Shown here in pieces: positions 3,246 to 23,917 of a stretch of 36,438 nt of DNA (position 1 is its first letter; each line of letters starts with the position of its first letter). Origin of the DNA: an uncultured Alphaproteobacteria bacterium. GTDB taxonomy: Bacteria > Pseudomonadota > Alphaproteobacteria > Rhizobiales > TMED25. The DNA is taken from assembly GCA_938074435.1 (NCBI GenBank), contig CALJEH010000065.1, forward strand, positions 1 through 36,438. Direction: 5' to 3'. The notes below the pieces were generated by a model. That model searched no databases. It worked only from the letters and a program-made list of their open reading frames with translations, and was not told where the DNA came from. The position numbers and the translations under genes were made by a program.

Positions 3246-4241
3246 ATGGTTACTAAGATTGATATGCACACTCATGTTGCACCAAGAGAGGCTGTAAAAG
3301 TTGCAGATAAAGGAGGGAATTGGCATGGTGTAGAGTTTTATCGAGATCAAAATGATAAACTCACAACATCCTTTGGAGGGGAAACAATGGCTTTACCATG
3401 GCCTAGAAAAATGGAAACTCCGCAAGATAGATTAAAATCTATGAGTGAAAGAGATGTTGATGTTCATGTTCTAAGTATGAGTCCACTCATGCATTGGCAT
3501 AAACTTGATAGTAAGAATGCCAAGTCTTATGCTATAGATGTAAATGATGACATCTCAGATTATGCAAATATAGATAATAAAAGGTTTCAGGCTCTATGTT
3601 TTTTACCATTACAGGATACAGATGCATCAATTTATGAATTAGAAAGATGTGTCCAATCAAAAAAAATGATGGGTGCCATGGTAGCCACAAACATCAATGG
3701 AATGGATTGGGATAACGATAAGCTATATCCCGTCTTGGAGGCTGCTAATAAATTGAAATGTTTAGTATTTTTTCACCCTACAAGGGGCAGAGCAAACTCA
3801 TGGCTACAAAATTATCATCTTAGAAATCTTATTGGTAACCCACTTGAAACGACTGTTGCTATGGCAAATATTATTTTTGGAGGCATATTAGATAAATTGT
3901 CCGACTTAAACTTATGCTTTGCTCATGGGGGCGGCTTTATGCGACAAGGAGTTGGACGCTTTGATCATGGATATAGGGTAAGAGATGAAGCTAAACTGAA
4001 TATTTCATCACTACCTTCAGAATATTTAAAAAGTTTCTATTACGATACTATAACACATTCTGAGGATGGATTAAGAAACTTAATAGATATTGTAGGTATA
4101 GATAGAATTTTCCTTGGAAGTGATTATCCCGCAGATATGGGAGAGCCGTATCCAGTGGATTTTGTTAATAATTCGAATCTCCTATCTGTAGAGGAAAAAG
4201 AAAAAATACTAAGTAAAAATATTTTATCTTTCTTAAAATAA
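3246..4241 (+). CDS. Amidohydrolase_2 family metalloenzyme (ACMSD-like decarboxylase/hydratase)
   Basis: IDMHTH (HxH), FFHP, NLIGNPLETT, AHGGGF, GRFDHG, LGSDYP motifs; RBS AAGGGAG upstream. Confidence 0.85.
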   Translation: MVTKIDMHTHVAPREAVKVADKGGNWHGVEFYRDQNDKLTTSFGGETMALPWPRKMETPQDRLKSMSERDVDVHVLSMSPLMHWHKLDSKNAKSYAIDVNDDISDYANIDNKRFQALCFLPLQDTDASIYELERCVQSKKMMGAMVATNINGMDWDNDKLYPVLEAANKLKCLVFFHPTRGRANSWLQNYHLRNLIGNPLETTVAMANIIFGGILDKLSDLNLCFAHGGGFMRQGVGRFDHGYRVRDEAKLNISSLPSEYLKSFYYDTITHSEDGLRNLIDIVGIDRIFLGSDYPADMGEPYPVDFVNNSNLLSVEEKEKILSKNILSFLK

Positions 4242-4253
4242 TGAGGATACAAA

Positions 4254-4661
4254 ATGAAAAATAATAAAAAACAAAATGAGTTATCTAGAACTTTTGCTGA
4301 AAGGCGCAGTCATGTATACCCAGCACACAAGTGGCTAGCGGAAAAATTTCCTGAATATGTGCGAATAATGCTGGATTTAGACTATGAAATAAGACAGAAA
4401 ACAAGAATATTTGATGAAAAAATGCATGAATTATTTCATATAATTGCTCTTGCTGTAAAAGGATCAAATCCTCATAACCAACAACACTTAAAAGCACACA
4501 TAAAAAAAGGCCTACAATTAGGATTGGCTCCAGAAGAAATTGCTGAAGCTTTAATGGTTTGCGTTAACCCAGGTGGGGCTATGGTTCTCACATATAGCGT
4601 AACTTGTATGCTTGAAGCAATAGATGAATTGAAACAAGAAGGCTGGGAAGAACCAAAATAA
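4254..4661 (+). CDS. Carboxymuconolactone decarboxylase (CMD/AhpD-like fold) protein
   Basis: 'DEKMHELFHIIALAV...HLKAHIKKGLQLGLAPEEIAEAL' CMD pattern; no AhpD CxxC; RBS GAGGA. Confidence 0.8.
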   Translation: MKNNKKQNELSRTFAERRSHVYPAHKWLAEKFPEYVRIMLDLDYEIRQKTRIFDEKMHELFHIIALAVKGSNPHNQQHLKAHIKKGLQLGLAPEEIAEALMVCVNPGGAMVLTYSVTCMLEAIDELKQEGWEEPK

Positions 4662-4679
4662 AGTAAATTATCTATCTAA

Positions 4680-5783
4680 TTAGATATTAGCTAATGGAAC
4701 CGGCTGACCCGTTTCTGATGCTTCAGCCATCGCTAAAGTTACAGCTAATGTCTGTCTTGCTTCTTTAGCTGTTGTTAGGTGGCATTTGGACCCTGTTGAC
4801 TGTGCATCTAGCCATTCTTTGGTTTCATCAGCTATTCTTCCGAACATGACCCCATCCGCCCACTCACCTGATGACCTACTTCCCAAAAATGCAAGTTTTA
4901 ACTTTTGGTCTTCAGCATAAGCGTTACTATAACCATGCTCTGAATATAATATCTGATCCCTATGATCGTCATCAATTAAAATAACTCCATCTCGACCCAT
5001 AATCTCAAGCCTTACACTTTGTCCAGTTGTGGGGAAACCACCTGGTAAAGCATAACAAATGTCAAAAGAGAATACCGCACCTGTTGAATATTTTACCATG
5101 GTCAAGCTTATATCATCTACGTCATAACCTTGATCACGAAAAATAGTTCCATGCCCCATTGCCTGTACTTCTATGGGTGATACGTCTGGACCCAAACACC
5201 ACCCTATATAATCAACATTGTATGTAATTATATCAAGTATGGGTGTAGCCTCTGGACATCTCTTAAGTATTTCAAGCATATTTGTTCTTGTATTATAAAC
5301 TCGTGTCATTCCACCAAGAATGGGGCCTAATTTTCCTTTTGAAATCTCATCATGAGCCACAAAATACTTTTGAAGAAATCTTTGCGAATAGCCAATTCTC
5401 AGATCAACTCCTTTTTCTTCAGCTAGTTTTGATAGTCTATCCCCATCTTCAATCGTTAGTGCAAGTGGTTTTTCAACCAGAACAGATTTCCCAGCACTTA
5501 TGGCAGCCTCTACAGACTCTCTGTGCTCATCCTCTGGGGTTGAAACAATTATAACATCGACGTTAGGATCATTTATTACTTCATAGTTGTCAGTGGTAAA
5601 TCCATTAGCATTAGTTGATTTTGCTAACTTTTCTGCAAATGTCTCATTTACATCTGAAACGACAAGATATTTCACTGCTGAATGAAGTGCAGCAAGTTTT
5701 GCTCTATGAGTACCAATCCTGCCCGAACCAATTACACCGACACCTATCTGTCTTTTCTTATAACTATTGCCTGATATTATCAT
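4680..5783 (-). CDS. Gfo/Idh/MocA family NAD(P)-dependent oxidoreductase
   Basis: GVIGSGRIG Rossmann motif, VLVEKP, GYSQRF. Confidence 0.9.
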   Translation of the reverse strand: MIISGNSYKKRQIGVGVIGSGRIGTHRAKLAALHSAVKYLVVSDVNETFAEKLAKSTNANGFTTDNYEVINDPNVDVIIVSTPEDEHRESVEAAISAGKSVLVEKPLALTIEDGDRLSKLAEEKGVDLRIGYSQRFLQKYFVAHDEISKGKLGPILGGMTRVYNTRTNMLEILKRCPEATPILDIITYNVDYIGWCLGPDVSPIEVQAMGHGTIFRDQGYDVDDISLTMVKYSTGAVFSFDICYALPGGFPTTGQSVRLEIMGRDGVILIDDDHRDQILYSEHGYSNAYAEDQKLKLAFLGSRSSGEWADGVMFGRIADETKEWLDAQSTGSKCHLTTAKEARQTLAVTLAMAEASETGQPVPLANI

Positions 5784-6805
5784 GCTACTTCTCTTTTAGG
5801 TATTCCACCCTTTTCCACATATGAATACCTCTCCATAAGCTCAGGAGCTAAACTTCTCCTGTGTTCTGTTGGAAATGATATCCACATACGTAGTAAATGT
5901 CTTTTCAATTTAGGATCATCATAATCCTCATAATCTTCTCTCGCATGCAATATTTGATGATTATTGATAAACTGAATATCTCCTTGTTGGAAACCCATAG
6001 ATAATCTAAGAGATTCTCGTTCACTTATCTCTTGAACAACATCTAGTGCTTCACGTTGGAGTTCTGTTAGTGCAAGATGCTCCCCATGACGTGCAACAGA
6101 CTCAAAAAATGCTCTTGAAGTAATTCTTGATGTTAATTTGCCATCATGATAGCTAAACATGGGGCATGTGTACCATGGTTGTTCCCCTTCTGGATTCTCT
6201 CCTCTCCAATCAAGATTAAATGGTTGATGCAATACTTCAATTAGATCAGGTCTTTCTTTTCTCAAAACATTATGAATAGTGAGTGCTGATACTAGATAAC
6301 TTGCCCCACCTTTTTTAGCTTTTCTTTGACAAAATAATCCAACTACATCAACTGGTAATTGATCGGAATGGAAGTCCATTTTAAGTTTGGTTTGATACAT
6401 TCTTGTTGTCGGATCTGATATGGATTTTCCTTCATCTGTAACATGTCCGAGTAAGTGACCCCTTGTGTTTTGTGATACAGGTGTACCCAAATGAATACCA
6501 ATTCCCCAATAAATTAACTCACATTCATCGTCTGTGTATTTATCTCTATCAATTCCTCTAATCAATACAAAACCAAGTTGGTTTTCTAGAACATCATATA
6601 ATGAATGGATTTTTTTTGATAATGTTGGCAATACAAAATCTTCTTTATGGAAAGGAATTTTAATATCATTCTCTATCAAATATTTAAGTGCTTCATCTAT
6701 TTCTTTAAGCTCTAGATCATTAAGGTGTAGCAGCCACTCAATTGAGTTTTGTATTTCAGGTCCAACCCAAGCTGCTCGTTCATTGACTTCATTATTTAAT
6801 ACCAT
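5780..6805 (-). CDS. TauD/TfdA (clavaminate synthase-like) Fe(II)/2-oxoglutarate dioxygenase
   Basis: FHSD (HxD), distal ILHAR, RHLLRMW. Start moved to ATG 6805 (MVLNNEVNERAAW), 2 nt after the TerC stop; 4-nt overlap with the next gene. Confidence 0.88.
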   Translation of the reverse strand: MVLNNEVNERAAWVGPEIQNSIEWLLHLNDLELKEIDEALKYLIENDIKIPFHKEDFVLPTLSKKIHSLYDVLENQLGFVLIRGIDRDKYTDDECELIYWGIGIHLGTPVSQNTRGHLLGHVTDEGKSISDPTTRMYQTKLKMDFHSDQLPVDVVGLFCQRKAKKGGASYLVSALTIHNVLRKERPDLIEVLHQPFNLDWRGENPEGEQPWYTCPMFSYHDGKLTSRITSRAFFESVARHGEHLALTELQREALDVVQEISERESLRLSMGFQQGDIQFINNHQILHAREDYEDYDDPKLKRHLLRMWISFPTEHRRSLAPELMERYSYVEKGGIPKREVA

Positions 6806-6807
6806 AT

Positions 6808-7494
6808 TCAAATATCCTTCTTTCTTGACTTCACTAATACACGCGCGGTAACTACCACGAGAACTGCACATGAAACAGATCCAATAAATCCATTATCCTC
6901 ATTCATGAATGAAAATATAACCTGATTACCTTTATCTGTAAACAAAAGATGACCAGAAATCCAACCCAAGAGTCCGCCTCCAAACCAGATAAGAACTGGA
7001 TACTTCGAAAAAACATTAAGTAGGAAAGAGCTGCCAATAAATAGAAGAGGAATTGCTAAGACTATTCCAAAAATAATGAGTGGAATTGATCCGTGAGCTG
7101 CCGCGGCAACTGCAAGAACGTTATCCAAACTCATCGCTGCATCAGCAATCGCAATTGTAAAAATTACTTTAACTAATGTTTTTGCTTCACCTTTATCTTG
7201 ATGATGATTCTCATCTTCAGGTAATATTAATTTTATTGCAATCCATATAAGCAGAATCCCACCAATAGTTCTTATATATGGTACATCCAAAATTAATGTA
7301 ACTATACTTGCGAAAATAATCCTGAGCAAAATTGCTGTAGCTACGCCAAAGAACATGCCAATTCTTTTTTGTTTTTGAGGCAATCCTCTGCAAGCGAGAG
7401 CAATCACAATCGCATTATCACCACTTAGAATTAGATCAATCCAAACTATTTGAAGAACAACAACCCAATCAATTGCGCCTAAGAACGAGCCCAT
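6808..7494 (-). CDS. TerC family (YjbE-like) integral membrane metal-handling protein
   Basis: DLILSGDNAIVIALA and ADAAMSLDNVLAVA signature motifs; multiple TM segments. Confidence 0.92.
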   Translation of the reverse strand: MGSFLGAIDWVVVLQIVWIDLILSGDNAIVIALACRGLPQKQKRIGMFFGVATAILLRIIFASIVTLILDVPYIRTIGGILLIWIAIKLILPEDENHHQDKGEAKTLVKVIFTIAIADAAMSLDNVLAVAAAAHGSIPLIIFGIVLAIPLLFIGSSFLLNVFSKYPVLIWFGGGLLGWISGHLLFTDKGNQVIFSFMNEDNGFIGSVSCAVLVVVTARVLVKSRKKDI

Positions 7495-7517
7495 TCAGTG
7501 TTTATCCCAATTCAGTA

Positions 7518-8567
7518 TCATAAAAAATCATTCCGAGGTAAAGAAACCGGTTCACCAAGCTCAACTGATAAATCCGCAGCTTGATAAACTTGCATAACTA
7601 ATTTTGCTTCTTCTCCTGTCACCATAACTGGAGTATCAAAAACTATTGAATTTATGAAATGATTTATCTCTTCGTGCATTGAACCTGCAAAAACATGATC
7701 TATTTGTTCGCCCGGCATTGAAGAAAGAGGGTACCTGATTCCATCCCTTGTTGTGTTAAGCTGTATGTCCTTGTGCGAGTCATCAATTGTAAGCGTGCCA
7801 TCAGTTCCAACAATCTCAATGAATGCTTGTACGTAATTCGGATAACCAATTGGAAGAATCCAACCAATTCCAATTGTGATAGTTGTTCCATCATCCATTG
7901 TAATCATTACCCATTGATGATCTGGAGTCTCACTTTTTCTTGAAAATAATTTACCTGAAGTTTGTGAATATACTCTGATTGGTTTTCTTGGTTGCATTGC
8001 CCACAGAACAAAATCTAAATCATGAACGCCAGCAATCGAGGTAGGTGACATTTTTGACCTTCCAGTAATCTTTTCACCAAGTTCCCTTGTTGAGTTCCTT
8101 GATATAAGACATGTAACAGGATCACCTATCAGCCCTCCCTTTAATGCCTTGTTGATATATGCATATCTTGGATCAAATCTTCTGGAATAACCTACAGTCA
8201 TCTTTAAATTATTTTTACTTGCAAGTTCAAGTGCCTGGTCAGTTTCAGCTATTGTTGGCGCAATAGGCTTTTCTACAAAAACATGTTTCCCTTTCTCTAA
8301 ACATTCCATCACAATTGGGAAACGGACTGTTTCTGGTGTCATAGAAATGACAATAGCATCTATACCTGGATCATCCGCAAGCTCTCTCCAATTATTAGTA
8401 ATTTGATCAGGTTTTAACTCTTTTTTGAGCTCTGCCACTCTATGCTCGTCTATTTCTGCAATAGATAACCGGTCAATTAGGGGGTTTTTTCGGCAAGCCG
8501 CTGCTCTTATACCACCAACCCATCCAGCACCAATAACTGCTGCATTTATTTGATTTAACTTTGCCAT
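7518..8567 (-). CDS. Gfo/Idh/MocA family oxidoreductase
   Basis: VIGAGWVG, HVFVEKP, GYSRRF, GVHDLD; likely start ATG 8567 (MAKLNQINAAVIG). Confidence 0.9.
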   Translation of the reverse strand: MAKLNQINAAVIGAGWVGGIRAAACRKNPLIDRLSIAEIDEHRVAELKKELKPDQITNNWRELADDPGIDAIVISMTPETVRFPIVMECLEKGKHVFVEKPIAPTIAETDQALELASKNNLKMTVGYSRRFDPRYAYINKALKGGLIGDPVTCLISRNSTRELGEKITGRSKMSPTSIAGVHDLDFVLWAMQPRKPIRVYSQTSGKLFSRKSETPDHQWVMITMDDGTTITIGIGWILPIGYPNYVQAFIEIVGTDGTLTIDDSHKDIQLNTTRDGIRYPLSSMPGEQIDHVFAGSMHEEINHFINSIVFDTPVMVTGEEAKLVMQVYQAADLSVELGEPVSLPRNDFL

Positions 8568-8665
8568 GTTAGAAAATAAATTCCATTTTAAAAACAAACT
8601 AACTTTAGCATAGAGAATTTAGTTTTCATTAAAAAAAATTATATTTTAACGAAAATTAGGCTCTA

Positions 8666-8693
8666 TTGACAAGAGGTCGATTTATTGTAAGTA
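8666..8693 (+). promoter_or_regulatory. Candidate sigma-70 promoter for the prpD-like operon
   Basis: Exact TTGACA at 8666-8671 in the divergent intergenic region; the -10 is only weak (TAAGTA at 16-nt spacing). Confidence 0.35.
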
Positions 8694-8735
8694 TTAAACC
8701 CTAATTATCTAATGTATTGCTAGGGGGGAACACAA

Positions 8736-10112
8736 ATGGATATAGCTCAAACATACGCGAAGTATACAAAAGAACTTAAATACGATGATCTAACAGATGA
8801 TGTAATTGATCATGTCAAAAAATTAATCCTCGATATAATGGGGAATGATATCGGCGGCTATGAATGGATGGAATCTGGACCCTCAATACTTGAAGGTATT
8901 AGAGTAATTAATAGAAATGCAAAAGGTGCAACTGTTTTGGCTACCGGTGAAAGGATGGCTCCCGAGTGGGCTTCATTTGCAAATGCATCCATGGCACATA
9001 GTTTGGATTATGATAATCATCACGCAAAAGGTGTAATTCATGCTGGAGGAAGTGTTGTAAATTGTGCCTTGGCAGCTGCGGAGGAAAACAACCTCAGCGG
9101 GAAAGAATTAATAACCTCTGTTGTAATTGGTTATGAAATTGCATGCAGATTAGCAATGGCATTAGGACCTCATTCATCACATGAAATGGGTTTCCACCCA
9201 ACAGGAACATGCGCAACTTTCTCGGGTTCTGCAATAATTGGTCGTGCTAGGAAAATGTCAGAAGAACAAATTGTCAATGCTATGGGATTAAATGGATCCC
9301 AAGCTGCGGGATCTATGCAATATGTTGTAAATGGAGCTTGGAACAAAAGGACTCACCCAGGAATTAATACCCACTCAAGTTTTATTGCGGCCACACTTGC
9401 TCAGTCAGGTTTTATTGGAGCAGCAGAAGTATTTGAAGGCAAGCAAGGTTTCCTCCAAGGCTATGCATTAAGACCAATACCAGAGAATGCAACCAAAACA
9501 CTTGGTAAAAGTTATGAAACACTCGAAAATGCCATTAAGCCGTTTCCATTATGTCGCTATAACCACCAAACTCTTGATCTAGTAATTGATTATCAAAAAG
9601 AAAATAACATTGATACCAAAAGGATTAGTAAAATTGTTATTGATATGCCTACCTATGGTGTGCAACTATGTGGCTCTCCAATTGAGCTCAAACGTAACCC
9701 AAAATCTCCAGTTGATGCCCAATTTTCAGGTTGTTTTGCAGCTGCTTTAGCTTTAACTGAAAAAAGAGCAGATATGCAAATCTTTACATCAGTCCTGGAA
9801 AAAGGTATGACCGATGAATTCAGGAGATTATTATCAATAACTAATATTAAACAAGCGGATGATCTGGATGCAATTCATCCTGAATTCTGGCCGGGTAGGA
9901 TTACGATGACAATAGATGATAAAGATGTTGAACTATACGGTAAGCACATGCGAGGTGAAAAAGAACGTCCAATGTCTATTGAAGAAGTACAAGATAAATT
10001 TAGAGATTTAAGCCCAAACCATGATAGTAAAAAATTAGGTGAAGTATTTAGTGTTATTAATGATCTAGAAAACGCTAATATTGATGACTTATTATCACCG
10101 CTTAGAAAATAA
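8736..10112 (+). CDS. MmgE/PrpD family protein
   Basis: AHSLDYDNHH, GYEIACRL, GFHPTGT, AEVFEGKQGF, KPFPLCRYNH; G-rich RBS AGGGGGG. Confidence 0.92.
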   Translation: MDIAQTYAKYTKELKYDDLTDDVIDHVKKLILDIMGNDIGGYEWMESGPSILEGIRVINRNAKGATVLATGERMAPEWASFANASMAHSLDYDNHHAKGVIHAGGSVVNCALAAAEENNLSGKELITSVVIGYEIACRLAMALGPHSSHEMGFHPTGTCATFSGSAIIGRARKMSEEQIVNAMGLNGSQAAGSMQYVVNGAWNKRTHPGINTHSSFIAATLAQSGFIGAAEVFEGKQGFLQGYALRPIPENATKTLGKSYETLENAIKPFPLCRYNHQTLDLVIDYQKENNIDTKRISKIVIDMPTYGVQLCGSPIELKRNPKSPVDAQFSGCFAAALALTEKRADMQIFTSVLEKGMTDEFRRLLSITNIKQADDLDAIHPEFWPGRITMTIDDKDVELYGKHMRGEKERPMSIEEVQDKFRDLSPNHDSKKLGEVFSVINDLENANIDDLLSPLRK

Positions 10113-10134
10113 TAACATAACAGGAGTTATATGA

Positions 10135-11235
10135 ATGTTTAAGATTGCAAAAATTGAAGCATGTGCTGTTGCTATTCCGCTAAAAATGCCAATCAAAATG
10201 TCTGGGATACTGATTGAAACATGTGATAATTTAGTTGTAAAAGTAACAGATTCAGATGGAAATATTGGCTGGGGTGAAGCTTCATCAGCACCAACAATGA
10301 CAGGTGAAACTGTTGAGGGGCTTGTTGCTGCAACGAAATTTATGGCAGACAGACTCGAAGGAATTGAAGTCACAAGTAATGATGAACTAGTCAATCTGAT
10401 TGAACCTCTCATGGTAGCGAACCATAGCGCAAAATCAGCGATTGATGGCGCATTATATGATCTGATTGGTAAACATTTAAATAAACCGATGTATGAAATT
10501 CTTGGTGGAAAAAACCGTAAAAATGCTCCAATGTTTTGGATGATCGCAGGAAGCAATGATGAACTTGAATTAGCAAAGGCAAGAATTGACGAGGGATATG
10601 TTGCCTTTAAAGTTAAAGTTGGGATGAATGAACCATCACATGACCTTGATAGATCAGAAAAATCAAGAAAAATTTGTGGTGATAATGTCCATGTGTCCGC
10701 GGATGCAAACCAAGGATATCGTCCAGAAGATGCGTTCACCTTCGCAAAAGGAGCAGGCAAAGCTGGGCTAGACTTCTTTGAACAACCTGTTCATGGTCAT
10801 GATATAAAATCAATGGCAAAATGCGCAGAGTTATGTGAAGTTCCAATTGGTGCTGATGAAGGAATTCACTCAATAGAAGATATTCAGAAACACTATGATC
10901 ATAATGCCGCAATGGGCGGCAGCCTCAAATTAATAAAATTAGGTAGTGCACAAGGGGTAATGGAGGGAGCAAAATTAATGCAGAAATTATCAATGTCTGT
11001 AAATCTTGCAGGAAAAACTGCCGACACAAGCATTGCAAGTGCAGCAATTTCTCATTTAGCAGTATCTCTTCCTACACTTGAATGGGATGCAAGTGTTACC
11101 AATCAATATCTAGTTGATGATGTAGCCAAGAACCCAATCCAAGTTATCAATGGAAGAATAATTACGCCCGATGGACCTGGACTTGGTATTGAAGTTGATG
11201 AACAAAAGATCGAACAATATAAACGTGCAGTATAA
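10135..11235 (+). CDS. Enolase superfamily, muconate-lactonizing-enzyme subgroup protein
   Basis: GWGEA, FKVKVG (KxK), metal ligands in DAN/EQP/ADE, second Lys in SLKLIKLG, PGLGIEVD; RBS AGGAG. Confidence 0.92.
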   Translation: MFKIAKIEACAVAIPLKMPIKMSGILIETCDNLVVKVTDSDGNIGWGEASSAPTMTGETVEGLVAATKFMADRLEGIEVTSNDELVNLIEPLMVANHSAKSAIDGALYDLIGKHLNKPMYEILGGKNRKNAPMFWMIAGSNDELELAKARIDEGYVAFKVKVGMNEPSHDLDRSEKSRKICGDNVHVSADANQGYRPEDAFTFAKGAGKAGLDFFEQPVHGHDIKSMAKCAELCEVPIGADEGIHSIEDIQKHYDHNAAMGGSLKLIKLGSAQGVMEGAKLMQKLSMSVNLAGKTADTSIASAAISHLAVSLPTLEWDASVTNQYLVDDVAKNPIQVINGRIITPDGPGLGIEVDEQKIEQYKRAV

Positions 11236-11241
11236 ATAAAT

Positions 11242-12222
11242 ATGGCTGTTGTTAACCTTGGTATTCTTGGAGTTGGGAATTGGAGTAAAAAACTAGCAAC
11301 TACGATTCAAAATATTGATGATGCAAATTTGTTAACATGCTTCAGCAGAACAAGTCATACAAGAGAGGAATTTGCTCAAAAATTTGGTTGTGAACCATCA
11401 ATATCCTTTGATAAATTTATCAATGATAAAAGGATCGATGGAATAATAATTGCTACACCTCATACAACACATGTAGATCTGATTTGTTCAATTGCTCAGT
11501 GTAAAAAACACATAATGGTTGAAAAGCCTCTAGCTTTGTCGAGTATAGATGCAAAAAGATGTGTTGAAGTAACAAAGGAAAACAATGTGCTCCTTCAAGT
11601 TGCCCATTACAGAAGATTATTACCAGCAACAAGGTTATTGCATTATAAAATTACCAATAATAACCTCGGAAAAATACACCTAATAGAAAGTAATTTTAGT
11701 CGACCTTTTGGACCAGACCCCAACAGGCCATGGAGAAATAATGAAATAGAAGCTCCAGCTGGTGCATTCACAGCGCTTGGTGTTCATATGATAGATAATC
11801 TGATATATCTCGGTGGTGATGTACAATCTGTAAATGCGCTAAGTAGCGTTTTAGATGAAGACAAGCCCCTAGATGATATAACATCTGTTCTAATAAAATT
11901 TAAAAGTGGAGCTCATGGAGTAATCAACACCTCCTTGAGATTACCATTCATTGCAAATATATGTGCTCAAGGTAATTTAGCCTCTGCCTGGAGTGAAGAC
12001 GATGGTAATAAATTTTTTATTCAAAAAATAAATGAAGAAAAAAGAACAGAAATTACATTAGATAAAATTGATGGTGTAGAACAAAATTTGAGGAATTTTT
12101 GTAGCTCTATAGTCAACCAAATAGAACCTGAAACAAATGGTGAAGAGTCCTCGAAAGTTGTAAGAGTCCTTGAGGCCATAGTTGAGTCTTCAGATAAAGA
12201 AGGTCTTAATATTCAAATATGA
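11242..12222 (+). CDS. Gfo/Idh/MocA family oxidoreductase
   Basis: GILGVGNW, ATPHTTH, HIMVEKP, LGVHMID. Confidence 0.9.
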   Translation: MAVVNLGILGVGNWSKKLATTIQNIDDANLLTCFSRTSHTREEFAQKFGCEPSISFDKFINDKRIDGIIIATPHTTHVDLICSIAQCKKHIMVEKPLALSSIDAKRCVEVTKENNVLLQVAHYRRLLPATRLLHYKITNNNLGKIHLIESNFSRPFGPDPNRPWRNNEIEAPAGAFTALGVHMIDNLIYLGGDVQSVNALSSVLDEDKPLDDITSVLIKFKSGAHGVINTSLRLPFIANICAQGNLASAWSEDDGNKFFIQKINEEKRTEITLDKIDGVEQNLRNFCSSIVNQIEPETNGEESSKVVRVLEAIVESSDKEGLNIQI

Positions 12223-12308
12223 AAATACCTCAATTTAATATTAATAATAGATTATTTCTATGTACTTACATCTTAAAAATAGCCTTCTTTTTGGAGATCA
12301 ATTATTAC

Positions 12309-12337
12309 TTGCTATATCAAATTAATGCGACTATCTT
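12309..12337 (+). promoter_or_regulatory. Sigma-70-type promoter of the TRAP operon
   Basis: TTGCTA (12309-12314), 17 nt, TATCTT (12332-12337), in the intergenic gap before dctP. Confidence 0.6.
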
Positions 12338-12348
12338 AAAAGTCTATA

Positions 12349-12366
12349 CGTGTCGTACCCGACACG
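12349..12366. promoter_or_regulatory. Inverted repeat in the dctP leader (operator or 5' stem-loop)
   Basis: CGTGTCG-TACC-CGACACG, perfect 7-bp arms, GC-rich in an AT-rich gap. Confidence 0.55.
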
Positions 12367-12397
12367 ATTCCAAACTATTTTTTAGGGAGAATATGAT

Positions 12398-13471
12398 ATG
12401 TTAAAAGATAGAAATATATTTATGATTTGTGCGCTAGCGCTCACTTTCATAATTACATCAGTGACTTCTGCGTCGGCTGAGAAAATTAAACTAAGAATTG
12501 CATCAGGCCATCCAACTGGAGTTGTCTATGCAGGATTAATGCAAAGTTATTTTCAACCAATGCTAGCTGAAAGAGTAGCTGAGCGTACTGATCATGAGAT
12601 TCAATGGATTGAAGGATATAGTGGAACAATTGCTAAAAACCCAGAAGTTCTTGAAGCAGTTCAAAATGGTATAACAGATATTGGTGGAATGTGCTTCTGT
12701 TTTGAGCCATCAAACTTACCATTACATGCTTTTCAAGTAATGCTACCATTTGGTACAATGAATCCAATGACAAGTCTTAGAATCGCTCAAACAGTTTATG
12801 CTCAAGAGCCATACCTAACAAATGTTTTTGAAGATGATTTCAATCAAGTACTTCTAGCCAGGATAACAGACCAAGGTTACAACCTTGGTACCACATTCCC
12901 TTGGAAAGATCTTTCAGAACTAGAAGGTGAAAAAATAGCTGGTGCTGGTCTAAACCTAAATTGGCTAGACTATGCTGGTATTACACCCGTACAAGGCACA
13001 CTTTCAGAAGCCTACACAGGTCTTCAAACAAACTTATACGAAGGTTGGGTTATGTTCCCAAGTGCATGGGTTAACTTGAAGCTTTATGAACATGGTGATC
13101 ATTACACACTAATTGGTTTTGGTGCTATGACATGGCATGGGTTAACAATCAACAAAGACTCATATGCCAAACTTCCAGACGATGTTAGGGAAATATTACA
13201 TGAAGTTGCAATGGAATATGAAGAACAAGTTGGTATTGTGAACAAAAGGGAATACCCTCAACATCTTGACACACTTCGTGATAAGATCACTGTTACAGAA
13301 CTCCCAGCTGACGTAAGAGCTGCATGGGCTGAGTCACTTGCTGATTGGCCACAATCAGTAGCAAGCGACCTTGAATCAAAAGGCTTACCTGCAGTTAGGG
13401 TGCTAAACCTTGCACTTGATGCTGCTGAAGCTCAAGGGTACAAGTGGCCTGTTCGTTACGTTGTTGAATAA
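12398..13471 (+). CDS. dctP: TRAP transporter substrate-binding protein (DctP family)
   Basis: Signal peptide ending ASA-E, 'LEAVQNGITDIG', 'EAYTGLQT', 'INKDSYAKLPDDVREIL'; followed by small and large TRAP subunits. Confidence 0.92.
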   Translation: MLKDRNIFMICALALTFIITSVTSASAEKIKLRIASGHPTGVVYAGLMQSYFQPMLAERVAERTDHEIQWIEGYSGTIAKNPEVLEAVQNGITDIGGMCFCFEPSNLPLHAFQVMLPFGTMNPMTSLRIAQTVYAQEPYLTNVFEDDFNQVLLARITDQGYNLGTTFPWKDLSELEGEKIAGAGLNLNWLDYAGITPVQGTLSEAYTGLQTNLYEGWVMFPSAWVNLKLYEHGDHYTLIGFGAMTWHGLTINKDSYAKLPDDVREILHEVAMEYEEQVGIVNKREYPQHLDTLRDKITVTELPADVRAAWAESLADWPQSVASDLESKGLPAVRVLNLALDAAEAQGYKWPVRYVVE

Positions 13472-13485
13472 AATAATCTAATAAC

Positions 13486-13513
13486 TCACAAGATGCCCCC
13501 GGGCATCTTGTGA
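13486..13513 (+). terminator. Intercistronic stem-loop between dctP and dctQ
   Basis: TCACAAGATGCC-CCCG-GGCATCTTGTGA: 12-bp perfect stem with 4-nt loop, no U-tract. Confidence 0.7.
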
Positions 13514-13533
13514 AGTCAATTCTTCATAAAAAA

Positions 13534-14046
13534 ATGTATTTAATTAGACTAAGTGATAAAATAGCAAAAGTAATGATGATCATTGCTGCAGTATGGGCGT
13601 TTTCCCTAGCTTTCCTCATTCTTGCTGATGCATTATCAAGAAGTTTCCTTAATTATCCTTTAAATGGAACAAAAGATATAGTAGAAAACTCAATCGTTGT
13701 GATTATCTTCTTTCAAGCCGGTTACGCCATACGCTCAAGATCAATGCTGCAATCAGACATATTAGTTTCACAGGTATCTCCAAAGATAAAAAAAATTCTT
13801 TTAATTATAGGATATTTACTAGGTATGTTTTTCTTCTATGTCATGATTACTGGAAGTTGGGACCTCGCTTTCCAAGCTTTTGCTAAGGGTGAATATGAAG
13901 GTGAAGGTGCATTAAAAGTCCCTACTTGGCCAACAAGGTTTATTATTATATTTGGTAGCATATTCTGCTTCCTAAACTATCTGGTTCTTGCAATAGTGGA
14001 CATTTTCAACCTAGATGATGATGAAAGTTGGGCTAACAATGATTGA
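13534..14046 (+). CDS. dctQ: TRAP transporter small permease DctQ
   Basis: Four TM segments, 'ADALSRSFLNYPL', 'VPTWP'. ATG 13534 preferred because GTG 13510 lies inside the hairpin. Confidence 0.88.
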   Translation: MYLIRLSDKIAKVMMIIAAVWAFSLAFLILADALSRSFLNYPLNGTKDIVENSIVVIIFFQAGYAIRSRSMLQSDILVSQVSPKIKKILLIIGYLLGMFFFYVMITGSWDLAFQAFAKGEYEGEGALKVPTWPTRFIIIFGSIFCFLNYLVLAIVDIFNLDDDESWANND

Positions 14047-15376
14047 ATTTGAACTAATACTTATAGGTTTATTACTATTCTTTGTGGCTATTGGTGTACA
14101 CATTGTTATTGCGTTAGGTGTGACTGCTGTACTTGGTGTTTATTTTGCATATGGAGATTTTGGGATGGTCCAAAAACTCGTAGGAAGCACATCATATGAA
14201 GGACTTCGTAATTATGTTTTTGCTGTTATCCCTCTATTTATGTTAATGGGTGAATTTATAAGTAAGTCAGGAACAATTACTGATGTATACAGAGGAATTC
14301 AAAGAGGATTAAGAAGATTGCCTGGCAGGCTTGCTCTTGCAACAGTGATGGGTAATGCGATATTCTCATTCGTGACAGGTGTATCAATTGCATCAGCTGC
14401 TGCTTTTACGAGAATTGCTTACCCTGAAATGAAGAGGCACAGATATAATAACGGTTTCTCGCTCGCATCAATAACTGGATCTAGCGTTCTTGGAATGTTA
14501 ATTCCACCAAGTGTTCTAATGATTGTTTGGGGTATACTTACCGAAAGATCTATTGGCCAGATATTTCTTGCTGGTGTTATTCCAGGTTTATTGCTTACAG
14601 GTCTATTTATTGTCTATATACTCTGTGCTGCATTAATTATGCCAAAACTTGTTGGTTTGAATAAAGATGGCACGCCGATTGCAAGCACTGATGAAGTAGA
14701 AGATGAAAATTTAGAAACAGAAGGTAGTGTTTTGTGGAGTTCAATATGGCTATTTGGTATAATAGCAACTGTTTTAGGTGGTATTTGGGTTGGTTTTTTC
14801 TCACCTACAGAAGGTGCAGGTGTAGGAGCTGCATTGGGATTAATATTAGCAATATCAAAGGGTGCAACTACAAAAGACATCATTGGAACTATCTTATCAG
14901 TCGGAAGAACTTCAGCACCAATACTTTTACTGCTGTTAACTGCATCTCTTTACTCAAGATCACTAGCTATGACTGGTGTTACTTCAACCATACAAGATTT
15001 ATTCCTCTCTACAGGTTTTGGTTATGTTGGGATTGTACTTTTAATGATGCTCATATGGTTTATCTTAGGCATGATTATTGATAGTATTTCTATAATGCTT
15101 CTGACTGTTGCAATCTTTGAACCAATTGCTGTATCATTAGGAATCGAGCCTATGGCATTTGCAATATTAGGAATCATTGCTATTGAGGCTGGGCTCTTAA
15201 CCCCCCCATTTGGTCTACTAGTCTATACCGTAAAAGCTTCTGCAAGAGATAAAAATGTTCGACTTGGTCAGATATTCTATTATTCAATTCCTTATTGGAT
15301 CATTATGTTGATTACAGTAATGTTGTTACTTCTATTCCCAGGAATTGCAACGTTTTTACCTAATCTATTATTTTAA
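14039..15376 (+). CDS. dctM: TRAP transporter large permease DctM
   Basis: VIPLFMLMG, LGMLIPPS, FSPTEG, GLLTPPFG; ATG 14039 overlaps the dctQ stop (ATGATTGA). Confidence 0.95.
   Translation: MIEFELILIGLLLFFVAIGVHIVIALGVTAVLGVYFAYGDFGMVQKLVGSTSYEGLRNYVFAVIPLFMLMGEFISKSGTITDVYRGIQRGLRRLPGRLALATVMGNAIFSFVTGVSIASAAAFTRIAYPEMKRHRYNNGFSLASITGSSVLGMLIPPSVLMIVWGILTERSIGQIFLAGVIPGLLLTGLFIVYILCAALIMPKLVGLNKDGTPIASTDEVEDENLETEGSVLWSSIWLFGIIATVLGGIWVGFFSPTEGAGVGAALGLILAISKGATTKDIIGTILSVGRTSAPILLLLLTASLYSRSLAMTGVTSTIQDLFLSTGFGYVGIVLLMMLIWFILGMIIDSISIMLLTVAIFEPIAVSLGIEPMAFAILGIIAIEAGLLTPPFGLLVYTVKASARDKNVRLGQIFYYSIPYWIIMLITVMLLLLFPGIATFLPNLLF
14668..14683 (+). promoter_or_regulatory. Consensus sigma-54 (-24/-12) site inside dctM
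   Basis: TGGCACG-CCGA-TTGCA, with the exact GG-N10-GC spacing. Confidence 0.45.
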
Positions 15377-15395: not shown

Positions 15396-15471
15396 TGGTG
15401 CCCTGACCTAGATTTGAACTAGGGACACAACGATTTTCAGTCGTTTGCTCTACCAACTGAGCTATCAGGGC
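15396..15471 (-). tRNA. tRNA-Phe (GAA)
   Basis: Reverse complement GCCCTGATAGCTCAGTTGGTAGAGCAAACGACTGAAAATCGTTGTGTCCCTAGTTCAAATCTAGGTCAGGGCACCA: 76 nt, cloverleaf, encoded CCA. Confidence 0.97.
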
Positions 15472-15761: not shown

Positions 15762-16181
15762 TTAATTAACAAAATATTCCCTAATACCGGAACTTGTTCC
15801 ATCCTTTAGTATAATTTTTATTGAAACTTTTTTAGTAGATGGAGGAATTATACGAAACCTCTCTATGTCCTTTACTTGCCTATTGCACATTGGAAGCACC
15901 AATATATTATTTGGTTGCGCTTCATTTATCCCATATCTAACTTCTTTTATTGAACATCTATTCTCTATTAGATATTCAAATCTAATTATTAAATTAGAGC
16001 CCTGGGAATCAAAAACTAACCATGTTTCTTTGGTAGTTGTATTTTGTTTATGACTACTCGTAAGCAGAAATAAAAGAAAAAATAAGGTTGTTAATATGAT
16101 AGTAAATAAAATTTTATATTTATTATTTTTTAAAATTTTACTTATCTTTCCATCTATATTTAGCGTCATAGCCAACGCCAT
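15762..16181 (-). CDS. Hypothetical membrane-anchored protein (start uncertain)
   Basis: Single N-terminal TM segment after a Lys-rich stretch, then a beta-rich domain with two Cys; fills the maf-yacG gap co-directionally. Confidence 0.7.
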   Translation of the reverse strand: MALAMTLNIDGKISKILKNNKYKILFTIILTTLFFLLFLLTSSHKQNTTTKETWLVFDSQGSNLIIRFEYLIENRCSIKEVRYGINEAQPNNILVLPMCNRQVKDIERFRIIPPSTKKVSIKIILKDGTSSGIREYFVN

Positions 16182-21525: not shown

Positions 21526-22366
21526 GTGCAATATTAATATTTATCACCTTATTCATAATTTAATTGATATCAAAAAAGAGCCAAGCTTCCTATCTGAGAC
21601 AGTTTCTGAGGCAATCTATGGTGAATTTTTTCAAGTTGAAGAAGACTTGGAAAATTGGGTTTTTGGTAGGTTACTTACAGATAATTACTCCGGTTATCTA
21701 CCAAGAAGTGCTCTACGTAAAGACGAAATTAACCTCAATGCCACTCGATTGTATATTAATTCTAATTGCGCAAGCATATATTCAGAGCCGGATCCAAAGT
21801 CCCCAATAATAAACACTTTATTCAGAAATTCGCGTATTATAAAAAAAACAAACAACTTGAATGGGTTTTTTGAGGTCGATTCTGGAATTGGATACATAAA
21901 TGAAGCTCATGTATCTCTTTCAAAAAAAATGACTATAGCAGATGATTTTGTAAAAATAGCATCCTCATATATTGGAACACCTTATAAATGGGGTGGCAGA
22001 ACTATTCTTGGAGTAGATTGTTCTGGATTAATACAAACTTCTCTGCATTCTCTTGGTATTAAATGCCCTAGGGATACTAAGGATCAAATAGAAGTACTTG
22101 GTAGTCAAATTGAGATGGCTCCGGATTATAAAGATCTTAAAAATGGTGACATAATTTTCTGGGAGGGGCATGTTGGAATTTATATTAAACCCAACAAAAT
22201 TTTGCATAGTAATATGACCACAATGGACACAAGAATTGAAAATTTTAATAAAGTAAAAAGAAATCTCGAGAAAGTTAACAAGATAATAATCTCTACTAAA
22301 AGGATTGATGAAAAAATAAGAACATTTCAGTCAAGTAAAGCGGAGGATATTAATTTCTTTGTATAA
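21526..22366 (+). CDS. NlpC/P60 (C40) peptidase with SH3-like N-terminus; 5' end anomalous
   Basis: PYKWGG, DCSG, HVG catalytic motifs. The frame is open from 21509 and encodes IDIKKEPSFLSETVSEAIYGEFFQV upstream of the first canonical start (TTG 21647). The start given here is the out-of-frame GTG 21526 and is tentative. Confidence 0.8.
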
Positions 22367-23916
22367 TCATTCTTTGGTCTATTGAAGATATTCTCTGTAT
22401 AATCAGACTCGATTATATTTCCAGAATTAATTACAAAGACTCTATCAGCTATGTACCTAATCACCCTTAAATCATGACTAATAAATAGGTATGCTGTGTT
22501 ATATTTCTCCTGTAAATTTATCAAAAGGTTTAGAATTTGAAGCTGAACTGTTGAGTCGAGAGAACTTGTTGGCTCATCTAAAATAAGTAGCTTAGGTCTT
22601 AAAATTATAGCTCTTGCAATTGCAATTCTCTGTCTTTGTCCTCCTGAGAATTCATGAGGATACCTGTTAATGTGCTGTATTGAGAGTCCTACATCTTTGA
22701 GTATTTCATAAGTCATATCTAATCTTTTACTAGAACTTAATTCTATCTTCTGTGAAATTAACCCCTCTTCAATTATTTGTCCTATTGTCATCCTAGGTGA
22801 TAATGAACCATAAGGATCTTGAAATACAATTTGGAGATCTTTTCTTTTTGAATTCAATTGAATGCGATTTAATTTTGAAAAATCTTGACCCATGAAAACA
22901 ATCTTTCCTTGACTCTTGATTAGTCTAAGTATTGATAATCCTATAGTTGTCTTGCCTGAACCTGACTCTCCCACAAGTCCAACTGTTTCACCCAAATTGA
23001 TTGAGAAATTAATATTCTTTAAGATCTCATTTGTTTGTGTCTTCATTAGAGGTTTTTTTTGTATATAATTTACAGATAAATTCTCTACCTTGAAAATCTC
23101 AAGCGATTTATTCATTTTTTTCTTTTTAAGCTGAAGTCTGCGCGCATTTACAAGTTGTTTTGTGTAAGATTTTTTTGGATTTTGGAATATACCCTCAACC
23201 TCACCACTTTCAACAACTTTTCCATCCTGCATAACATAAACAAAATCAGAAAAGTCTTTTACTATACCAAGATCATGTGTAATAAACAGAATTGCTAAGT
23301 TTAATTCATCCTGTAATGATTTTAATAAATTTAAAATTTCATATTGTATTGTTACATCTAATGCTGTTGTTGGTTCATCTGCAATTAATAGTTTAGGGTT
23401 ATTCGATAGTGCCATTGCTATCATAACTCTCTGCCTTTCTCCACCAGATAGTTGATGTGGATATCTAGCAAGTTTACTTTCGGGATCACTAATCATAACT
23501 TTTTTCATTAACTCAATTACTTTATTTCTTATTTCATTCTTATTAGCTAATTTATGAACTAACATTCCCTCACTTATCTGTTTTTCAACTGTATGAAGGG
23601 GATTTAGAGAACTTAATGGTTCTTGAAAGACCATTGAAATTTTGTTACCACGAATTTTATTAAGTTGATCTGATGGAATCTTAGTCAAATCTTTTTTATC
23701 AAATATTATCTGACTATTATTTTGTATTATTGATGAATTAGGGTTTAAACCAAGTATAGACAGTGCTGTCAGAGTCTTTCCAGAACCAGATTCCCCAACA
23801 ATTGCAATTGTCTTCCCTTCTGGTATATTAATCTCAACATCACTAATTTGAAAATCTGCTTCAGTTAAACCTTTAAACTTCATGTTAAAATTTTTTATTT
23901 CTAATAAATTTTTCAT
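22327..23916 (-). CDS. yejF: Peptide ABC transporter double-ATPase YejF
   Basis: Two GESGSGKT Walker A motifs, YPHQLSGGERQR and YPHEFSGGQRQR; last gene of the yej operon. Confidence 0.9.
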   Translation of the reverse strand: MKNLLEIKNFNMKFKGLTEADFQISDVEINIPEGKTIAIVGESGSGKTLTALSILGLNPNSSIIQNNSQIIFDKKDLTKIPSDQLNKIRGNKISMVFQEPLSSLNPLHTVEKQISEGMLVHKLANKNEIRNKVIELMKKVMISDPESKLARYPHQLSGGERQRVMIAMALSNNPKLLIADEPTTALDVTIQYEILNLLKSLQDELNLAILFITHDLGIVKDFSDFVYVMQDGKVVESGEVEGIFQNPKKSYTKQLVNARRLQLKKKKMNKSLEIFKVENLSVNYIQKKPLMKTQTNEILKNINFSINLGETVGLVGESGSGKTTIGLSILRLIKSQGKIVFMGQDFSKLNRIQLNSKRKDLQIVFQDPYGSLSPRMTIGQIIEEGLISQKIELSSSKRLDMTYEILKDVGLSIQHINRYPHEFSGGQRQRIAIARAIILRPKLLILDEPTSSLDSTVQLQILNLLINLQEKYNTAYLFISHDLRVIRYIADRVFVINSGNIIESDYTENIFNRPKNDYTKKLISSALLD

Positions 23917-23917
23917 C

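Follow-up and report, generated by a model that had tools for sequence, protein, structure and literature searches.

A conserved twelve-gene locus of OCS116-cluster Alphaproteobacteria that probably breaks down a yet unnamed organic acid

Gene content and layout of the locus

We analyzed a 36,438-nucleotide stretch of DNA (hereafter ‘the window’) from an uncultured marine alphaproteobacterium of the OCS116 cluster (Hyphomicrobiales; assembly GCA_938074435.1, contig CALJEH010000065.1, positions 1 to 36,438). The source genome, G000, comprises 1.26 Mb on 115 contigs, has a GC content of about 33% and is 90% complete. Other G-numbers below denote compared genomes, L-numbers denote loci and C-numbers denote contigs of G000. 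Positions 3246-15376 of the window hold a block of 12 genes, namely nine enzyme or membrane-protein genes and the three genes (dctPQM) of a transporter of the tripartite ATP-independent periplasmic (TRAP) type. Judging from its sequences, this set probably breaks down a yet unnamed organic acid.

The block begins on the plus strand with an amidohydrolase gene (3246-4241; Amidohydro_2, Pfam accession PF04909, 5.6e-28), which encodes an ACMSD-like metal-dependent enzyme and probable decarboxylase or hydratase. After a 12-nt gap comes a gene for a carboxymuconolactone-decarboxylase-like (CMD) protein without a CxxC motif (4254-4661; Pfam accession PF02627, 2.3e-5, just past the cut-off). A minus-strand operon follows. 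Its first gene encodes GfoB (7518-8597), one of three GFO_IDH_MocA-family NAD(P) oxidoreductases assigned by Pfam. Next come a TerC/YjbE-type membrane protein (6808-7494; TIGR03717), a TauD-type Fe(II)/2-oxoglutarate dioxygenase of the TtnM/FrbJ branch (5780-6805; Pfam accession PF02668, 1.2e-36) and a second oxidoreductase, GfoA (4680-5783), which is translationally coupled to the dioxygenase through a 4-nt overlap of stop and start. The dioxygenase open reading frame (ORF) runs to 6871 and is probably over-extended, because orthologues align from the methionine at 6805; with that start, 2 nt lie between the gene and the terC stop, versus a 64-nt overlap for the long ORF. GfoB probably starts about 10 codons downstream of its called start, since 349 of its 359 residues align.

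The third group lies on the plus strand. It encodes an MmgE/PrpD-family protein (8736-10112), predicted to dehydrate, isomerize or epimerize a polycarboxylate, an MR_MLE enolase-superfamily protein of the muconate-lactonizing-enzyme (MLE) subgroup (10135-11235) and the enolase’s partner oxidoreductase GfoC (11242-12222), all assigned by Pfam and separated by gaps of 22 nt and 6 nt. A complete TRAP system of three adjacent genes begins 175 nt further on, with the divergent solute-binding protein DctP (12398-13471; Pfam accession PF03480, 2e-19), the small membrane subunit DctQ (13510-14046; Pfam accession PF04290, 1.2e-23) and the large membrane subunit DctM (14015-15376; Pfam accession PF06808, 8.4e-75). 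DctQ and DctM overlap by 32 nt. An earlier sequence-only reading of this DNA had described 12 genes in three blocks with tight or overlapping junctions, and both this layout and its family assignments agree with the ORF listing and Pfam.

The divergent gfoB and prpD starts are separated by a 138-nt control region (8598-8735). An ATTGACA element in this region is unchanged in 12 of 12 aligned sequences of the genus. On its 3′ side lies a conserved T-rich/GTAA stretch, followed by a G-rich ribosome-binding site ahead of prpD. Generic promoter and terminator scans did not rise above shuffled sequences (49 versus 53.5 expected and 3 versus 7.6 expected, respectively). A search for sequencing data listed 24 RNA runs, in which the share of sampled words reaches 0.21 at most. 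Rfam identified no riboswitch or small RNA in the block; its only matches in the window are two tRNAs and a signal recognition particle RNA. An inverted repeat (GTGTCG-TACC-CGACAC, 12340-12365) is located 5′ of dctP and occurs in only some members of the genus.

Catalytic features of the encoded proteins

Metal-binding and acid/base residues are intact in the dioxygenase, the amidohydrolase and the enolase, as judged by sequence alignment. The dioxygenase has an H146-x-D148…H287 triad that is invariant in 15 of 15 orthologues. This triad and the fold (predicted model, pLDDT 84, pTM 0.86) assign it to the TauD/TfdA family of Fe(II)/2-oxoglutarate dioxygenases. Only two PDB sequences match it at E<=0.01, 7n7v (3e-51) and 5eqn (3e-46). 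Foldseek names these two as TtnM, a hydroxylase from tautomycetin biosynthesis, and the phosphonate hydroxylase FrbJ. All Foldseek matches are 2-oxoglutarate dioxygenases, with lysine and arginine hydroxylases, TmpA and BBOX far behind these two. Identity to TtnM is 32-33% (TM 0.71-0.78). No taurine or sulfonate dioxygenase (TauD, SqoD) appears among the PDB sequence matches at that threshold or the Foldseek matches listed, a result for which the presence of SqoD in the database copy was not checked. NCBIfam gives weak matches to BBOX and TmpA only, and the ESM Atlas returns only generic ‘TauD/TfdA family’ clusters.

The other products of the dioxygenase operon are less distinctive. The best NCBIfam match of GfoA is inositol 2-dehydrogenase (117 bits, cut-off 355). 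TerC scores 215 bits against TIGR03717 (cut-off 134.8), which places it in the YjbE subfamily. The YjbE family name implies a yybP-ykoY riboswitch upstream. Rfam detected none upstream of terC in the window, where 23 nt separate terC from gfoB.

The amidohydrolase is most similar to human ACMSD among PDB entries (1e-53 over the full length; the entry is an R47A mutant). Its HxH motif (H8, H10), H177, H227-GGG (H227-G229-G230) and D293 do not vary among the 22 relatives aligned. Human ACMSD binds its substrate’s carboxylates through Arg47 and Arg235. Aligned with the human enzyme, the protein keeps an invariant Arg235 equivalent (R238) but has alanine in place of Arg47. Neither 3-hydroxyanthranilate dioxygenase nor aminomuconate-semialdehyde dehydrogenase was found in the block by Pfam. 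A role as true ACMSD was rejected on the alanine at the Arg47 position and the absence of ACMSD-pathway neighbours from the block. By its sequence, the protein is a competent metalloenzyme with a substrate other than that of ACMSD. The adjacent CMD protein has weak PDB matches to gamma-CMD proteins.

Genes for a CMD protein and an ACMSD-type amidohydrolase_2 are adjacent three times in G000, in the window (3246-4661), on C79 (L074:3719-6304) and on C29 (L081:1413-3026). The same adjacency occurs in other phyla (L046:4280-6857 and L032:4005-5550). The CMD proteins of these pairs share 16-19% identity between sets. The recurrent pair may constitute a two-protein decarboxylase.

The PrpD-like protein best matches a Bacillus subtilis IRG1-like protein (3e-26), iminodisuccinate (IDS) epimerase (4e-21) and cis-aconitate decarboxylase (CAD, 2e-14) in the PDB. 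We take the active-site set of CAD to be D93, T97, H103, H159, K207, K272, H277 and Y318. Five of these positions (D93, H103, H159, K207 and K272) are kept, so that the family’s carboxylate-binding core (D/H/H/K/K) is retained. The equivalents of T97, H277 and Y318 are histidine, cysteine and leucine, and these three differences led us to reject CAD activity. In an alignment of low identity, IDS epimerase and the B. subtilis IRG1-like protein also have cysteine at the H277 position, and a functional link to this branch is only putative. We also rejected 2-methylcitrate dehydratase (40.9 bits for the single PrpD model matched, against a cut-off of 950, with no prpB or prpC in the block). We found 309 homologues of the PrpD-like protein at E<=1e-60, and the 120 listed have generic names only.

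In the enolase, the KxK motif of strand 2, the Asp/Glu/Asp metal ligands and the second lysine, on strand 6, align with YkfB, Bacillus cereus N-succinylamino acid racemase (NSAR) and (chloro)muconate cycloisomerases, which places the protein in the MLE subgroup. Two candidate functions of the enolase were rejected. The score against the muconate/chloromuconate cycloisomerase model (mucon_cyclo, TIGR02534) is 185 bits, below the cut-off of 334.95. Dipeptide epimerases bind the substrate ammonium through a DxD motif after strand 8. At this site the enolase has EWDAS versus FDFD in the L-Ala-D/L-Glu epimerase YkfB, and the first aspartate alone aligns.

DctP has 4n6d as its best PDB match (2e-13) and falls below both NCBIfam cut-offs. 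No enzyme of the block exceeds a curated NCBIfam cut-off or matches an equivalog; TerC is the sole protein of the enzyme block to pass. The titles of close homologues are all metagenome-assembled genomes (MAGs) or single-amplified genomes (SAGs). We found no paper on this combination of gene families in the literature searched, and among the OCS116 papers listed none deals with genomes or with this cluster. The NCBIfam and literature results uphold the view of the sequence-only reading that the enzyme set matches no recognized pathway.

Conservation within OCS116 and co-occurrence in other lineages

The block genes are real and not chance ORFs, as each has orthologues, 60-98% identical, elsewhere in the genus (14 other genomes). 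The PrpD-like protein is present in 14 of 14 of these genomes at 84-97% identity (one copy is truncated by a contig end). The CMD protein is 81-96% identical in 16 of 16 orthologues of the OCS116 family, and about 90 of its 135 columns are invariant. For GfoB, identity is 80-94% within the genus and 83% to the sister genus, and DctP is 73-98% identical in relatives.

The block is syntenic in all members of the genus examined and in the sister genus. It lies between an lptC-lptA-lptB-rpoN flank upstream and, downstream, a tRNA-Phe gene that marks its right boundary (15396-15471, minus strand; Rfam and ARAGORN), a 139-amino-acid ORF and maf-hisD-murA. The 20 window genes that served as queries are all collinear in both G005 and G013. 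The same locus is found in G001 and in the sister-genus genomes G015 and G018. Gene content varies at this locus. In G001 (L014:12044-12946) and in L037, the dctPQM position is occupied by a gene for a beta-hydroxyacid-dehydrogenase-like protein of the 3-hydroxyisobutyrate dehydrogenase (HIBDH) type, which resembles tartronate-semialdehyde and threonate dehydrogenases. G000 has a copy of this gene, 62% identical, on C90.

Block proteins are better conserved than their neighbours in protein identity. We compared the 12 block genes with 21-23 background genes of the same window by the Nei-Gojobori method, in tests that are indicative only because the genomes are kin. Relative to G005, synonymous divergence (pS) is 0.39 in the block and 0.42 in the background (p=0.2), whereas nonsynonymous divergence (pN) is 0.029 and 0.048 (p=0.017). 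Relative to G013, pN is 0.120 in the block and 0.208 in the background (p=0.0017). All 12 genes share the low pN. Since pS resembles the background while pN is about half, the pattern reflects constraint rather than recent transfer. The flanking tRNA-Phe gene and a higher GC content (0.34-0.39, versus 0.26-0.33 in the flanks) had led us to consider recent horizontal acquisition, which the background-like pS rejects within the family. The block is a long-resident, strongly constrained locus of the OCS116 family. The ‘island’ of the sequence-only reading, in the sense of a recent arrival, does not fit a single locus whose synonymous divergence is like that of its flanks.

The 139-amino-acid ORF (15762-16181, minus strand) matches no family in Pfam or NCBIfam. 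It has an N-terminal hydrophobic stretch, is 40-76% identical in relatives and overlaps the maf start. Further downstream, an oligopeptide-type ATP-binding cassette (ABC) system (22327-27999, minus strand) comprises SBP_bac_5, two permeases and a double ATPase. Its permeases (77-87% identity) are conserved to the same degree as the block genes.

Orthologues of the block also cluster in other lineages. A PrpD scan of one genome per species yielded 34 loci, of which 14 are of the OCS116 type, 18 come from other lineages (60-73% identity) and two are distant. We counted neighbours in 19 loci, the 18 from other lineages and one from the larger family member G017; four of these loci are shorter than 8 kb. 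PrpD is accompanied by orthologues of the TauD-family dioxygenase in 11 loci, and by enolase (11), Gfo (11), Amidohydro_2 (12), CMD (6), a parvulin-like protein (8), an IclR regulator (8) and CoA-transferase III (7). Acidimicrobiia, Nitriliruptorales, Verrucomicrobiales, Chthoniobacterales, Flavobacteriales and Bauldia are among the lineages named in the titles. In Acidimicrobiia, Verrucomicrobiota and other Proteobacteria, genes for enolase, Gfo, CMD and ACMSD-like proteins adjoin the PrpD-like and TauD-like orthologues (50-73% identity). An enolase-GfoC pair (40-54% identity) adjoins PrpD in 11 of the 19 loci, and GfoB has 46% identical orthologues in L036 and L092. The blocks thus co-occur in other genomes, so that the lack of co-occurrence by which the sequence-only reading would have been refuted is not observed. 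In these phyla the cluster itself includes genes for CoA-transferase III, a MenB/BadI-like crotonase, a thiolase, IclR and a PF04199 cyclase.

A scan with the dioxygenase as a single protein recovered only OCS116 kin and one other sequence. We therefore used an alignment-based scan, which found 128 relatives and from which the best 80 were kept, all with MAG or SAG titles. Among these best 80 of 128, 66 loci lie outside OCS116, and the dioxygenase is accompanied in them by Gfo (19 loci), Amidohydro_2 (18), enolase (17), HIBDH-like (12) and PrpD (7) genes. The dioxygenase adjoins a TRAP transporter in three architectures, found in the window, in soil proteobacteria and in 8-11 loci of marine Rhodospirillaceae. 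In eight of the Rhodospirillaceae loci (L096, L097, L099, L100, L101, L104, L108 and L109; 59-62% identity), it has an amidase on one side and, on the other, a fused DctQM with a putative binding protein of 459 amino acids that belongs to no family. In five of them (L096, L097, L099, L104 and L108) it is next to maf-hisD(-murA), housekeeping genes that also neighbour the block in OCS116. Four soil proteobacterial MAGs that are close kin (L090, L094, L095 and L142) have an ATP sulfurylase two genes from a LysR-enolase-TauD-HIBDH-HIBDH-TRAP-GlcD-like cluster.

Two sub-modules also occur apart. TerC-TauD-GfoA … CMD-amidohydrolase (module A, 56-75% identity) stands alone in L087, from G017, and in L088, from an unrelated alphaproteobacterial MAG that has TerC-TauD-GfoA with TerC at 56%. 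The TauD-then-GfoA order is found in L087, L088, L098, L103, L105 and L106 (56-73% identity). PrpD-enolase-SDR-GfoC (module B, in which SDR denotes a short-chain dehydrogenase/reductase) stands alone on a separate contig of G017, so that TauD-GfoA-CMD-amidohydrolase and PrpD-enolase-GfoC are on different contigs in this genome. A Flavobacteriales MAG contains PrpD-enolase with a major facilitator superfamily (MFS) gene in the order MFS-PrpD-enolase. In L087 (contig 4 of G017, a 4.1-Mb family member), the module-A amidohydrolase is represented by two ORFs of 201 and 174 amino acids (13585-14684) and may be broken; a DDE transposase lies upstream.

Phylum labels are intermixed in the PrpD tree, which indicates transfer between phyla, an effect that wrongly binned MAGs could exaggerate. 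The OCS116 clade (100/100) is nested (95/83) with G017 and two MAGs, one of Acidimicrobiia and one of Flavobacteriales.

G000 encodes 17 Gfo and nine Amidohydro_2 matches in its 1.26 Mb, versus medians of 4.5 and 2 in 22 order-level genomes of 2.3-5.6 Mb. The larger family members G016 and G017 have 22-29 Gfo and 15-18 Amidohydro_2 matches. Small clusters on C79 (L074), C29 (L081), C42 (L073), C113 (L075), C90 (L076), C87 (L077), C97 (L078) and C68 (L079) recombine these families with TauD, CMD, enolase, HIBDH, CoA-transferase III, cyclase and amidase genes. C79 encodes a beta-keto acid cleavage enzyme (BKACE), a canonical TauD paralogue (222 bits to taurine dioxygenase), a 2-hydroxyacid dehydrogenase, CMD, Gfo, an amidohydrolase and another Gfo. 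C29 carries a thiamine diphosphate enzyme, CMD, an amidohydrolase and an ABC transporter, C42 carries two MLE-like enolases with Gfo and MFS genes, and C97 carries HisD-like, cyclase and CoA-transferase III genes.

The sequence-only reading had pointed out that a ring-cleaving dioxygenase, a CoA transferase and a thiolase are missing. This is true of the locus but not of the genome, nor of the clusters in other phyla described above. C68 encodes family I and III CoA-transferases and a MenB/BadI-like crotonase (54% and 61% identity to genes in the L046 cluster), and thiolases are present elsewhere in G000. A lone catechol-1,2-dioxygenase-like intradiol gene is found on C63 (1100-1978, L086), outside any catabolic cluster, at 178 bits against a cut-off of 392. 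Next to it are rpoZ, smpB and dapA, which are housekeeping genes, and a gene resembling D-amino-acid dehydrogenases.

A candidate pathway and its alternatives

Our preferred reading, to which we give somewhat less than an even chance, is that a substituted or hydroxylated polycarboxylic acid is imported by the TRAP transporter and then undergoes 2-oxoglutarate-dependent hydroxylation, NAD-linked oxidation and CoA-free decarboxylation. The data show gene content, synteny, selection and co-occurrence across phyla; every chemical step and the substrate class are predictions. DctPQM would import the acid, and the TtnM/FrbJ-like dioxygenase would hydroxylate an unactivated carbon. The coupled GfoA would form a ketone from the hydroxyl so introduced, or from one already present, and the ACMSD-like metalloenzyme and the CMD-like protein would strip carboxyls from the resulting beta-keto or vinylogous acid. 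The PrpD-like protein, the MLE-like enolase and GfoC may carry out (de)hydration, isomerization, epimerization or lactone opening, and further oxidation, on the same skeleton. No CoA ester would be required at the locus, and products would pass to the CoA-transferase, crotonase and thiolase genes elsewhere.

Most likely, the substrate is a di- or tricarboxylic acid that bears substituents or hydroxyl groups and is of the citrate, aconitate or dialkylmaleate type, or a relative able to form lactones. We favour a polycarboxylate because of the TtnM link, the partnership with PrpD and the fact that CoA-transferase III, crotonase, IclR and cyclase genes are neighbours. The cyclic or heterocyclic substrate proposed in the sequence-only reading is putative, and the best lead from sequence comparison points to a substituted maleate-, aconitate- or citrate-like polycarboxylate.

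The closest parallel for the dioxygenase is the tautomycetin/tautomycin cassette for dialkylmaleic anhydride, which builds a small polycarboxylate and includes TtnM. A review passage describes synthesis of the tautomycetin unit from 2-oxoglutarate and propionate by TtnMOPR. The cassette differs from the block in being biosynthetic, in lying in a polyketide cluster with a condensing enzyme and in an identity of about one third. The block has its own TRAP importer, three Gfo proteins and ACMSD-like and CMD-like proteins, and no condensing enzyme. We take the cassette to include a PrpD-like dehydratase (TtnR), a CaiB-type family III CoA-transferase (TtnP) and a PF04199-type cyclase (TtnS). If this content is right, four of its families neighbour each other in the cross-phylum clusters.

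Several points weigh against this pathway. None of the block's enzymes has a characterized orthologue, and their top NCBIfam scores lie well under the cut-offs. The PrpD-like and CaiB-like links to the tautomycetin cassette are putative. The enolases (30-36% identity) and CMD proteins (16-19%) of other phyla may not be orthologues. Thirty of the 66 dioxygenase loci outside OCS116 show none of the companion families with the queries used, so the dioxygenase must have other contexts as well. In the sister genus (G015, G018), PrpD and GfoC are missing from the block, and some members of the genus lack the TRAP genes, so neither set is indispensable. Finally, sulfur-related neighbours point in another direction.

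These neighbours would fit oxygenolytic desulfonation, in which the TRAP transporter imports an organosulfonate, the dioxygenase hydroxylates the carbon that bears the sulfonate and frees sulfite, Gfo- or HIBDH-type enzymes process the aldehyde and TerC may export the anion. A TRAP transporter, an Fe/2-oxoglutarate dioxygenase of the TauD family and an NAD(P)-linked oxidoreductase are clustered in the sulfo-ASDO architecture (SqoKLM-SqoD-SquF), as described in PMC10507154. The block departs from it in having a dioxygenase of another branch, a Gfo-type oxidoreductase and six extra enzymes. A YeeE/YedE-like Sulf_transp gene lies beside PrpD in G017, NitT/TauT-type ABC genes occur in L045 and L040, and HisD-like genes occur in three of the 19 PrpD loci. 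The HIBDH genes in 12 of the 66 dioxygenase loci (among the best 80 of 128) resemble tartronate-semialdehyde and sulfolactaldehyde reductases. G000 has five TauE/SafE matches (C95, C36, C66, C29 and C69) and one Oxidored_molyb match (C66), with no NIR_SIR match in the 90%-complete genome; this pattern hints at organosulfonate use without assimilatory sulfite reduction. The ATP sulfurylases of the four soil loci also count in its favour, although those loci are close kin. We nonetheless give desulfonation a low probability. No Escherichia coli TauD-type or sulfonate dioxygenase is among the two sequence matches or the Foldseek matches listed, and a canonical TauD paralogue is already encoded on C79. 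Three Gfo proteins, PrpD, the enolase and two decarboxylase-type proteins exceed the needs of a small sulfonate, and TerC proteins are not known to export sulfite.

The abundance of Gfo and Amidohydro_2 genes in G000, and the further clusters that combine them, are consistent with a non-phosphorylative route that oxidizes a sugar, a sugar acid or a lactone, one of many parallel paralogous routes of the kind proposed for SAR202. Gfo would oxidize an anomeric or ring hydroxyl, amidohydrolase_2 would open the lactone and the enolase would dehydrate the acid. The best NCBIfam matches of the Gfo proteins are inositol, levoglucosan and xylose dehydrogenases. As described in PMC10444878, SAR202 is likewise a marine oligotroph with many paralogous small catabolic clusters from few superfamilies, with expansions of enolases, dehydrogenases and lactonases that include dehydrogenase, COG3618 and COG4948 paralogues. 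The expansions in OCS116 are instead of Gfo/Idh/MocA and ACMSD-type amidohydrolase_2 proteins, in a genome of 1.26 Mb versus about 3 Mb. The sugar route is rather improbable, as the amidohydrolase belongs with ACMSD-type decarboxylases (1e-53) and has no lactonase among its 42 PDB matches, and the enolase belongs to the MLE subgroup with a Lys/Lys pair and not to the acid-sugar dehydratases. The block contains no aldolase, kinase or KdgD-type gene, and PrpD, CMD and the dioxygenase would be left unexplained. Ring-fission products of aromatic compounds (muconate, carboxymuconate or pyrone-dicarboxylate), either imported or made by the cell’s own intradiol dioxygenase, are a still less probable substrate. 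The block’s non-oxygenase families each have a member that acts on ring-fission compounds (LigC, ACMSD/LigJ/LigI, PcaC and CatB), and PDB matches include ACMSD, LigJ, LigY, MLE and CMD. The MLE-type enolase, CMD, Gfo and amidohydrolase_2 superfamilies are shared with the lower beta-ketoadipate and protocatechuate 4,5-cleavage pathways (CatB/PcaC; LigC/LigI/LigJ), and full-length similarity, metal ligands, HGGG and the second-subunit arginine with ACMSD of the kynurenine and 2-nitrobenzoate pathways. IclR regulators in eight of the 19 PrpD loci and the C63 dioxygenase, a bicupin-FAH pair (C24) and the family I CoA-transferase subunits (C68) of G000 would also fit. Unlike those lower pathways, the block lacks a ring-cleaving dioxygenase, enol-lactonase, aldolase, CoA-transferase and thiolase and scores under the equivalog cut-offs. 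The C63 gene is unlinked to the block and far below its cut-off, and no LigB match was found in the 90%-complete genome. The enolase is under the muconate cycloisomerase cut-off, the Arg47 equivalent of ACMSD is absent, and the 2-oxoglutarate dioxygenase and PrpD have no counterpart in these pathways and would receive no role.

Two further readings are unlikely. A chance juxtaposition of three unrelated modules, which the sequence-only reading had offered as an alternative, has very little probability. The separate sub-modules of G017, the lack of PrpD-GfoC in the sister genus and the lack of TRAP genes in some genus members are compatible with it. Orthologues from all three blocks are nevertheless adjacent in Acidimicrobiia, Verrucomicrobiota and unclassified MAGs, the low pN is common to all 12 genes and the arrangement is preserved over two genera, so we reject the mosaic even though two sub-modules can live apart. 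Least probable of all is a biosynthetic cassette for a small maleic-anhydride-type or related acid. TtnM and FrbJ, the dioxygenase’s nearest solved relatives, are biosynthetic, but Pfam identified no condensing enzyme (citrate-synthase or lyase type), polyketide synthase or nonribosomal peptide synthetase in the block, an uptake system is attached, and the IclR, CoA-transferase and thiolase neighbours in other lineages are of catabolic type.

The building blocks and operon logic of the locus are familiar; their combination is new to the literature searched and has no curated family. A bolder form of the polycarboxylate pathway is doubtful, though we hold it more probable than desulfonation. 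In this form the TtnM-like dioxygenase, Gfo, the ACMSD-like/CMD-like pair and the PrpD/MLE helper would constitute an undescribed CoA-independent hydroxylate-oxidize-decarboxylate route, one of a family of such modules, that removes carboxyl groups from an abundant carboxyl-rich dissolved organic compound. If this is true, the 17 Gfo and nine amidohydrolase_2 proteins in 1.26 Mb would mark OCS116 as a specialist on a carboxyl-rich compound class.

OCS116 is a widespread, abundant and uncultured marine lineage with a minimal genome. The block is likely central to its nutrition, because it is kept in place in two genera and its proteins are under tighter constraint than their housekeeping neighbours. 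The core gene set also occurs in Acidimicrobiia, Verrucomicrobiota and Proteobacteria from soil, sediment and wastewater, in MAGs only, and the substrate should thus be common. The locus is of interest chiefly as an orphan pathway that is conserved, constrained and found across phyla, in a marine clade that is abundant and uncultured. Identifying the ligand of DctP would assign functions to orphan TauD-family, PrpD and ACMSD-like branches together. The nutrition of OCS116 would likewise become open to testing, which could aid its culturing.

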